From assembly GCF_024502345.1 (NCBI RefSeq), contig NZ_JALDNN010000001.1: 64,000 nt of DNA. One strand, given 5' to 3'. The DNA is from Escherichia coli (lineage in GTDB: Bacteria > Pseudomonadota > Gammaproteobacteria > Enterobacterales > Enterobacteriaceae). The notes under the pieces were generated by a model. It saw only the letters and a list, made by a program, of their open reading frames with translations, made no database searches and was not told the DNA's origin. Below are positions 30,218-31,657 of the stretch, one piece after another; within the stretch, counting starts at the first letter, position 1, and every line of letters begins with the position of its first letter. The position numbers and the translations under genes are program-made.

Positions 30218-31567
30218 ATGACCCTGTCTTTTATTACCCGCTGGCGCGATGAATTGCCAGCAACCTATACAGCACTTTCCCCTACGCCTTTAAATAATGC
30301 CCGGCTGATTTGGCATAATACCGAACTGGCTAACACGCTGAGTATTCCATCGTCGCTGTTTAAAAATGGCGCAGGTGTCTGGGGCGGCGAAGCCCTACTG
30401 CCTGGTATGTCACCACTGGCGCAGGTTTACAGTGGTCATCAGTTCGGCGTCTGGGCGGGCCAACTGGGTGATGGGCGCGGCATTTTACTCGGCGAACAAC
30501 TGCTTGCTGATGGCACTACAATGGACTGGCATCTGAAAGGTGCTGGCCTGACGCCTTATTCGCGAATGGGTGACGGACGGGCGGTTTTACGTTCGACGAT
30601 ACGAGAAAGTCTCGCCAGTGAGGCGATGCATTATCTGGGCATTCCGACGACCCGCGCGTTAAGTATCGTCACCAGCGATTCGCCAGTGTATCGGGAAACG
30701 GCGGAGCCAGGCGCGATGCTGATGCGTGTGGCACCAAGTCATCTACGCTTTGGTCATTTCGAACATTTTTACTACCGCCGCGAGTCGGAAAAGGTTCGTC
30801 AGTTAGCTGACTTTGCTATTCGTCATTACTGGTCACATCTTGAAGATGATGAGGACAAATACCGTCTCTGGTTTAGCGATGTTGTCGCACGTACCGCATC
30901 GTTAATTGCCCAATGGCAGACGGTCGGCTTTGCTCATGGGGTGATGAATACCGACAACATGTCGCTGCTGGGGCTGACGCTTGATTACGGGCCGTTTGGT
31001 TTTCTGGATGATTACGAACCCGGTTTTATTTGTAATCACTCGGATCATCAAGGGCGTTATAGCTTTGATAATCAACCTGCTGTCGCGTTGTGGAATTTAC
31101 AGCGTCTGGCGCAGACATTGTCACCATTTGTTGCCGTAGATGCCCTGAATGAGGCCCTGGACAGCTATCAGCAGGTTTTGTTGACGCATTATGGACAACG
31201 GATGCGGCAGAAACTGGGCTTCATCACGGAGCAAAAAGAGGATAACGCGCTACTGAATGAATTATTCAGTCTGATGGCGCGAGAGCGCAGCGATTATACC
31301 CGCACATTCCGCATGCTGAGTCTGACCGAGCAGCACAGCGCGGCGTCACCGCTTCGTGATGAGTTTATTGATCGTGCGGCATTTGATGACTGGTTTGCCC
31401 GTTATCGAGGGCGTTTGCAACAAGACGAGGTTAGCGATAGTGAGCGTCAGCAACTGATGCAAAGAGTTAACCCCGCTCTGGTATTGCGCAACTGGTTGGC
31501 GCAACGGGCGATTGAAGCGGCAGAAAAGGGTGATATGACGGAATTGCACCGCCTGCATGAGGCGTAG
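30218..31567 (+). CDS. selO: Protein adenylyltransferase SelO (YdiU), truncated here by an in-frame TAG at 31565..31567
   Basis: 449-aa [30 protein letters not shown]; the same frame stays open past the TAG for 28 more codons ([28 protein letters not shown]) to TAA at 31652..31654. Confidence 0.88.
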
Positions 31568-31657
31568 CGAAATCCTTTCAGCGACAGAGATGATGACTAT
31601 GTCAGTCGTCCACCTGACTGGGGTAAACGGCTGGAAGTCAGCTGCTCGAGTTAAAGG

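Follow-up and report, generated by a model that had tools for sequence, protein, structure and literature searches.

SelO (YdiU) of Escherichia coli K-12, a protein of 478 amino acids (PDB 6iii, 6k20 and 9jym), is a protein adenylyltransferase and UMPylase. An intramolecular disulfide between Cys476 and Cys272 of the activation loop regulates its activity (PMC8097203, PMC7278666), and Cys476 occupies the position that is selenocysteine in SelO of higher eukaryotes (PMC7278666, PMC3281104). Ser477 and Ser478 are the sites of self-AMPylation in YdiU, and this modification abolishes the UMPylation of GroEL (bioRxiv 10.1101/692707). A construct comprising residues 1–475 is active and unable to self-AMPylate (Yang et al., bioRxiv 10.1101/692707). 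In the crystal structures, residues 468–478 are disordered and everything earlier is visible (bioRxiv 10.1101/692707). Human selenoprotein O (SELENOO) belongs to the same family; its C-terminal [Cys/Sec]-x-x end is homologous to that of SelO, with Cys476 at the Sec position.

The window analysed here, the whole stretch of 64,000 nucleotides from E. coli, carries selO at the same locus as K-12 (ydiV-selO-hemP), with 98.9% identity at the DNA level and with the catalytic residues and Cys272 in both proteins. The product predicted from the window differs from K-12 SelO in that it ends at residue 449, lacks residues 450–478 and carries Ile336 and Arg416. The gene order ydiV-selO-hemP-aroH is conserved, selO being located between ydiV and hemP, its orthologous position in Escherichia. 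The features of the locus, with the evidence for each, are as follows.

30218–31567, plus strand: truncated selO (ydiU) coding sequence of 449 codons and TAG, from the ORF list, the Pfam match, the gene order and the invariant residues.
31031–31033, plus strand: codon (TGT) of the activation-loop Cys272, from the sequence, with the family-invariant N273 and D276 after it.
31565–31567, plus strand: premature amber TAG at codon 450, ancestrally TTG (Leu), from three references and the sister loci L013–L020.
31566, plus strand: the causal T>A transversion, from the sister-locus comparison and the SNP table.
31568–31654, plus strand: orphaned 3' end of selO, consisting of 28 sense codons (Arg451–Ser478) and the ancestral TAA (31652–31654), from translation.
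31643–31651, plus strand: codons of Cys476 (TGC), Ser477 (TCG) and Ser478 (AGT), now 3' of the stop, from the sequence.
31658–31849, minus strand: hemP (ydiE), intact and convergent, with 100% identity to K-12 hemP and no internal stop.

The selO reading frame starts with the ATG at 30218. In-frame translation from 30218 to 31654 gives 449 + 1 + 28 = 478 codons, followed by the TAA at 31652–31654. The initial annotation had described selO as stopping at the TAG after 449 codons, with the frame open for 28 further codons up to an ancestral stop next to the convergent ydiE; the ORF list and the translation agree with this, and the TAA and hemP are 3 bases apart. A run of 28 open codons has a chance of about a quarter [(61/64)^28 = 0.26]. 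The 28 residues after the TAG are identical to the C-terminus of the crystallised E. coli YdiU/SelO (PDB sequence), and the open frame is therefore due to homology, as a remnant of the ancestral gene, and not to chance. From the sequence, this 3' end is predicted to be no longer translated. The locus thus has an in-frame stop in place of a sense codon of its close relatives, and the frame beyond it is still recognisable, as is required of a nonsense polymorphism. A scan for promoters and terminators around the selO/hemP junction gave none above shuffle expectation.

The 1437-base selO was aligned without gaps to its counterparts in O157:H7 EDL933, K-12 MG1655 and ECNB21-M121 (the closest complete genome). 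The window shows 28, 16 and 12 differences, respectively. All three genomes have the gene annotated at 1437 bases, in keeping with the ancestral length of 478 residues that the initial annotation had given. Codon 450 is TTG in each of the three and TAG in the window, via T>A at 31566. The suggestion that the TAG replaces a sense codon is thus borne out: the codon is that of Leu450 in all three references and in the sister strains described below, and the reference protein has 478 residues with TTG rather than 449 with TAG.

The allele is seldom encountered in sequence collections. A 57-mer centred on the TAG was matched against 5,407 complete E. coli genomes and none was identical; selO itself was found in 5,422 of 5,426 complete genomes. 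In a separate collection of metagenome contigs (JGI/ENA), the TAG version of a 24-mer was on no contig, while the wild-type control, the TTG version, was on 53. The whole gene is spanned by 38 of the contigs with the TTG version. SelO of 478 residues is intact in 34 of these, and the other four have indels in selO (three of the four are named with a coverage of ~1–2x). A search of the literature for ydiU pseudogenes brought up only a missense SNP in Salmonella, which is unrelated. E. coli commonly has single nonsense polymorphisms, and the TAG allele is ordinary in kind; it is a rare, young and lineage-restricted nonsense allele of a well-studied gene.

The intact counterpart with Leu at position 450 is on record (WP_097748660.1; P0166 in our set). 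This SelO from a sister strain has the same 449 translated residues and the same 28 downstream codons as the window, and has Leu (TTG) where the window has the amber codon; Leu450 of WP_097748660.1 is the direct ancestor state of the window allele. Ile336 and Arg416 were considered as post-mutation decay of selO, and this was rejected since both are found in the intact ancestor allele; they are lineage variants older than the stop. Eight sister loci with intact selO (L013–L020) are 99.86–99.96% identical to the window over 21 kb. All eight have TTG at codon 450, and in six of them (L013, L014, L015, L017, L018 and L019) selO differs from that of the window at 31566 only.

The exact product of 449 residues (P0001; GenBank KUG68520.1, KUH07676.1, HEA3395275.1 and others) is present in 44 blocks of public assemblies (NCBI, ENA and Logan). 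Of the seven carrier loci examined, two are isolates in NCBI, four are gut-metagenome assemblies in ENA that stem from different studies, and one is a Logan run. Their identity to the window over 12–21 kb is 99.88–99.99%, and the TAG and identical tail DNA are found in all seven. The isolates ccpm3962 (LLYD01) and ccpm5172 (LLYL) are commensals of two healthy people, a preschooler and a university student (PMC7133007). The carriers come from several hosts and differ among themselves by about 2–10 SNPs per 21 kb, although we regard these counts as rough, as some of the loci are metagenome assemblies. In the SNP table, position 31566 separates carriers from sisters perfectly. The carriers agree at almost all other sites, and every sister has private SNPs. 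This distribution points to a tight sub-clade of carriers and to one recent origin of the TAG.

Three further sites of variation were noted among these loci. Position 31900 of the window, ~50 bases upstream of the start of hemP and beside an AT-rich stretch (31850–31899), has an A/G SNP. Every TAG carrier has A, as does sister L016, and the remaining seven sisters have G; apart from 31566, this site alone comes near to co-segregation with the TAG. The fadK gene, intact in the window, is disrupted in three of the eight intact-selO sisters, by one 1-base deletion in L013 and L017 (equivalent to window position 38064) and by a different one in L015 (equivalent to 36938); it is called as fragments of 424 and 137 amino acids in L013 and L017 and is uncalled in L015. 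The pheT gene (window 24394–24626) shows the same break in L006 (XUQI22-1) and L016 (ZHUF20-1), at locus positions ~4309–4410. Both are metagenome scaffolds that share the name pattern '_METAG-scaffold', a pheT fragment of 423 amino acids and several SNPs, and the break is probably a scaffolding or mixed-strain artefact rather than biology.

A natural nonsense allele was one of three causes put forward in the initial annotation, and it is the one that the recurrence of the allele across many wild isolates and gut metagenomes supports. We consider it highly probable that the allele is a recent natural nonsense polymorphism (Leu450 to amber, by T>A at 31566) of one sub-clade of human-gut commensal E. 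coli. The transversion turned TTG into TAG once within this sub-clade, which has since spread among hosts; we take the base change, its one origin, its spread in nature and the conservation of what was lost as shown. Release factor 1 would end translation at codon 450 and yield a SelO of 449 residues. Such a protein would keep the whole kinase-like AMPylase/UMPylase domain with all catalytic residues, and would be without the ordered linker (450–467), Cys476 and Ser477/478. As the allele has persisted through some diversification (2–10 SNPs per 21 kb among carriers) and through transmission between several hosts, it is not strongly harmful. Its behaviour is that of a neutral or mildly deleterious allele, as is usual for a young pseudogene; its survival for this long would also be in line with a change that is harmless or even beneficial.

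The truncation leaves the core of the protein in place. The Pfam SelO domain (PF02696) matches residues 2–450 (E = 2e-153, model positions 4–465 of 466), and the product of 449 residues lacks only the last residue of the match. The catalytic and nucleotide-binding residues K107, R170, R177, D246, N247 and D256 (E. coli numbering) are invariant in an alignment of 81 sequences, and all are present in the window protein. Cys272 is retained and is now without its disulfide partner. The C-terminal [Cys/Sec]-x-x end (SCSS in bacteria, 31640–31651) lies 3' of the TAG and is absent from the predicted product. The initial annotation took the cysteine of this lost end to correspond to the selenocysteine position, and Cys476 is indeed so placed in the literature (PMC7278666, PMC3281104, PMC8097203).

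Conservation of the lost segment was measured in 150 representatives of the SelO family (39–77% identity) aligned with mafft. Cys is found at position –3 in 146 of the 150 representatives and the SCSS end in 133. Conservation is 99% for Pro453, 85% for Pro466 and 73% for Leu450. The mean conservation of residues 450–478 is 0.484, as compared to 0.516 for the remaining protein; judged by this alignment, the lost 29 residues are about as conserved as the rest and do not form an expendable end. Even Escherichia homologues with only 87% DNA identity have the same tail. An AlphaFold2 model of the restored protein (mean pLDDT 96.2) places the last helix at residues 441–450. Residues 451–470 are non-helical with a pLDDT of 94–97 and are predicted to be ordered; the pLDDT falls to ~75 for residues 471–478. 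The model agrees with the crystal structures on order before, and disorder at, the C-terminal end.

By analogy with the described enzyme, SelO of 449 residues would have lost both redox and auto-inhibitory control. It is probably also destabilised or weakened, because the ordered and conserved segment of 18 residues would be gone as well; this rests on the conservation and on the predicted model. The closest described protein is YdiU 1–475, which is likewise shortened at the C-terminus and lacks Cys476, Ser477 and Ser478. The window allele differs in that 26 more residues (450–475) are missing, including the near-invariant Pro453 and the linker 450–467 that is ordered in the crystals. Conservation and model together make a weakened or unstable protein more likely than one that is simply deregulated. 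As to the outcome in the cell, we lean towards loss of function, in part or in full. The lesser, though still appreciable, prospect is an enzyme that is active but deregulated, and an absence of any measurable effect takes the small remainder.

Loss of the tail could also have been adaptive, if it had given a constitutively active SelO that was positively selected in a gut-adapted sub-clade. SelO freed of the Cys272–Cys476 redox lock and of self-AMPylation at Ser477/478 would then have aided the spread of the sub-clade among humans. This is consistent with the activity of YdiU 1–475 and its escape from inhibition by self-AMPylation, with the description of the disulfide to Cys476 as an internal regulator and with the sparing of the whole Pfam domain. 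The cut, however, takes 26 residues beyond that construct, among them the 99%-conserved Pro453 and the segment predicted to be ordered. The sub-clade is present in several people and cohorts, but hitch-hiking or drift explains the spread of one clone equally well. The allele arose once and does not recur (in none of 5,407 complete genomes, and on no metagenome contig as against 53 with TTG), and overall we regard selection for a deregulated enzyme as improbable. No substitution has occurred in the tail or the rest of selO since the stop in the carrier and sister loci, the allele being too young for such a comparison to have power, and there is thus no evolutionary signal that would tell loss of function from deregulation.

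It is very improbable that SelO is still effectively full length through decoding of the UAG, whether by an amber-suppressor tRNA or by natural read-through at a high level. In all carriers the 28 codons after the stop are fully intact, but this would be expected of such a recent mutation in any case. Read-through in a supE background, which the initial annotation had raised, is mechanistically valid for K-12 laboratory strains, where it is a known mechanism. The carriers, however, are wild commensals and metagenome-assembled genomes and, to our knowledge, wild E. coli do not normally carry amber suppressors. A tRNA scan for a suppressor found no tRNA genes within the 64-kb window, which thus offers no suppressor support. 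Read-through of the UAG may occur at a low level in carriers. In SELENOO, the stop-like codon is UGA and is read as Sec via a SECIS element, whereas in the window it is a UAG that takes the place of Leu, 26 codons before the Cys. The likeness of the UAG in the window to the in-frame UGA of SELENOO is coincidental.

The setting of the allele is that of a wild strain. The window and K-12 are collinear from chbB to lpp, with ~58 of the 60 genes intact and no insertion sequences in the window. The nearest complete genome is ~0.8% diverged from the window over 24 kb. The collinearity, the lack of insertion sequences and this divergence indicate wild E. coli, neither Shigella nor a laboratory strain. 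Genome decay of the Shigella type was considered and rejected on the collinearity, the lack of IS elements and the number of intact genes. Sequencing error and a laboratory-strain or engineered amber, both proposed initially, can be discounted almost entirely, as can an error of assembly: a single-base difference is of the kind an error could make, but the same base is found in at least seven independently assembled loci out of the 44 blocks (isolates, metagenomes and Logan runs), the allele recurs among numerous wild isolates and gut metagenomes that are independent of one another, the isolates are from healthy volunteers, and the backbone of the window is wild-type, IS-free, K-12-collinear and ~1% diverged from K-12.

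As a natural nonsense polymorphism, the truncation of selO matters little in itself, being of a common kind and in a non-essential stress gene. It has a modest value as a natural experiment, in which near-isogenic wild strains exist with the SelO tail (WP_097748660.1) and without it (ccpm3962 and ccpm5172). The cysteine at the human selenocysteine position lies in this tail; a comparison of carriers with sisters could show the role of the tail in a real gut commensal.

Between window positions 20000 and 44000, none of the 5,426 complete RefSeq E. coli genomes is closer than 99.2% (24 kb). The lineage of the window recurs in human gut isolates and metagenomes, and it seems under-represented among finished genomes. 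Elsewhere in the window, ydjO (8361–9165, plus strand) has a 1-base indel relative to K-12, by which the frame of K-12 meets a stop at codon 162 of 268. Its longest ORF is 8349–8846 (165 amino acids), and the gene is only 94.9% identical to that of K-12. This allele is common, with 1,283 complete genomes at least 99% identical and annotated as YdjO or hypothetical protein. The espL1 gene (16501–18370, minus strand) has an ORF of 544 amino acids (16736–18370) with 30 gapped positions relative to K-12, in which it is a frameshifted pseudogene. Divergence from K-12 is strongly mosaic (compare 3195–5318 with 42161–43072 and 55656–57270). The chbG gene is 90.5% identical to K-12 with a 9-base indel and celF is 97.0% identical, whereas ydiP, menI, ydiH, sufA, ihfA, hemP and lpp are 100% identical. 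This mosaic suggests patches of recombination.
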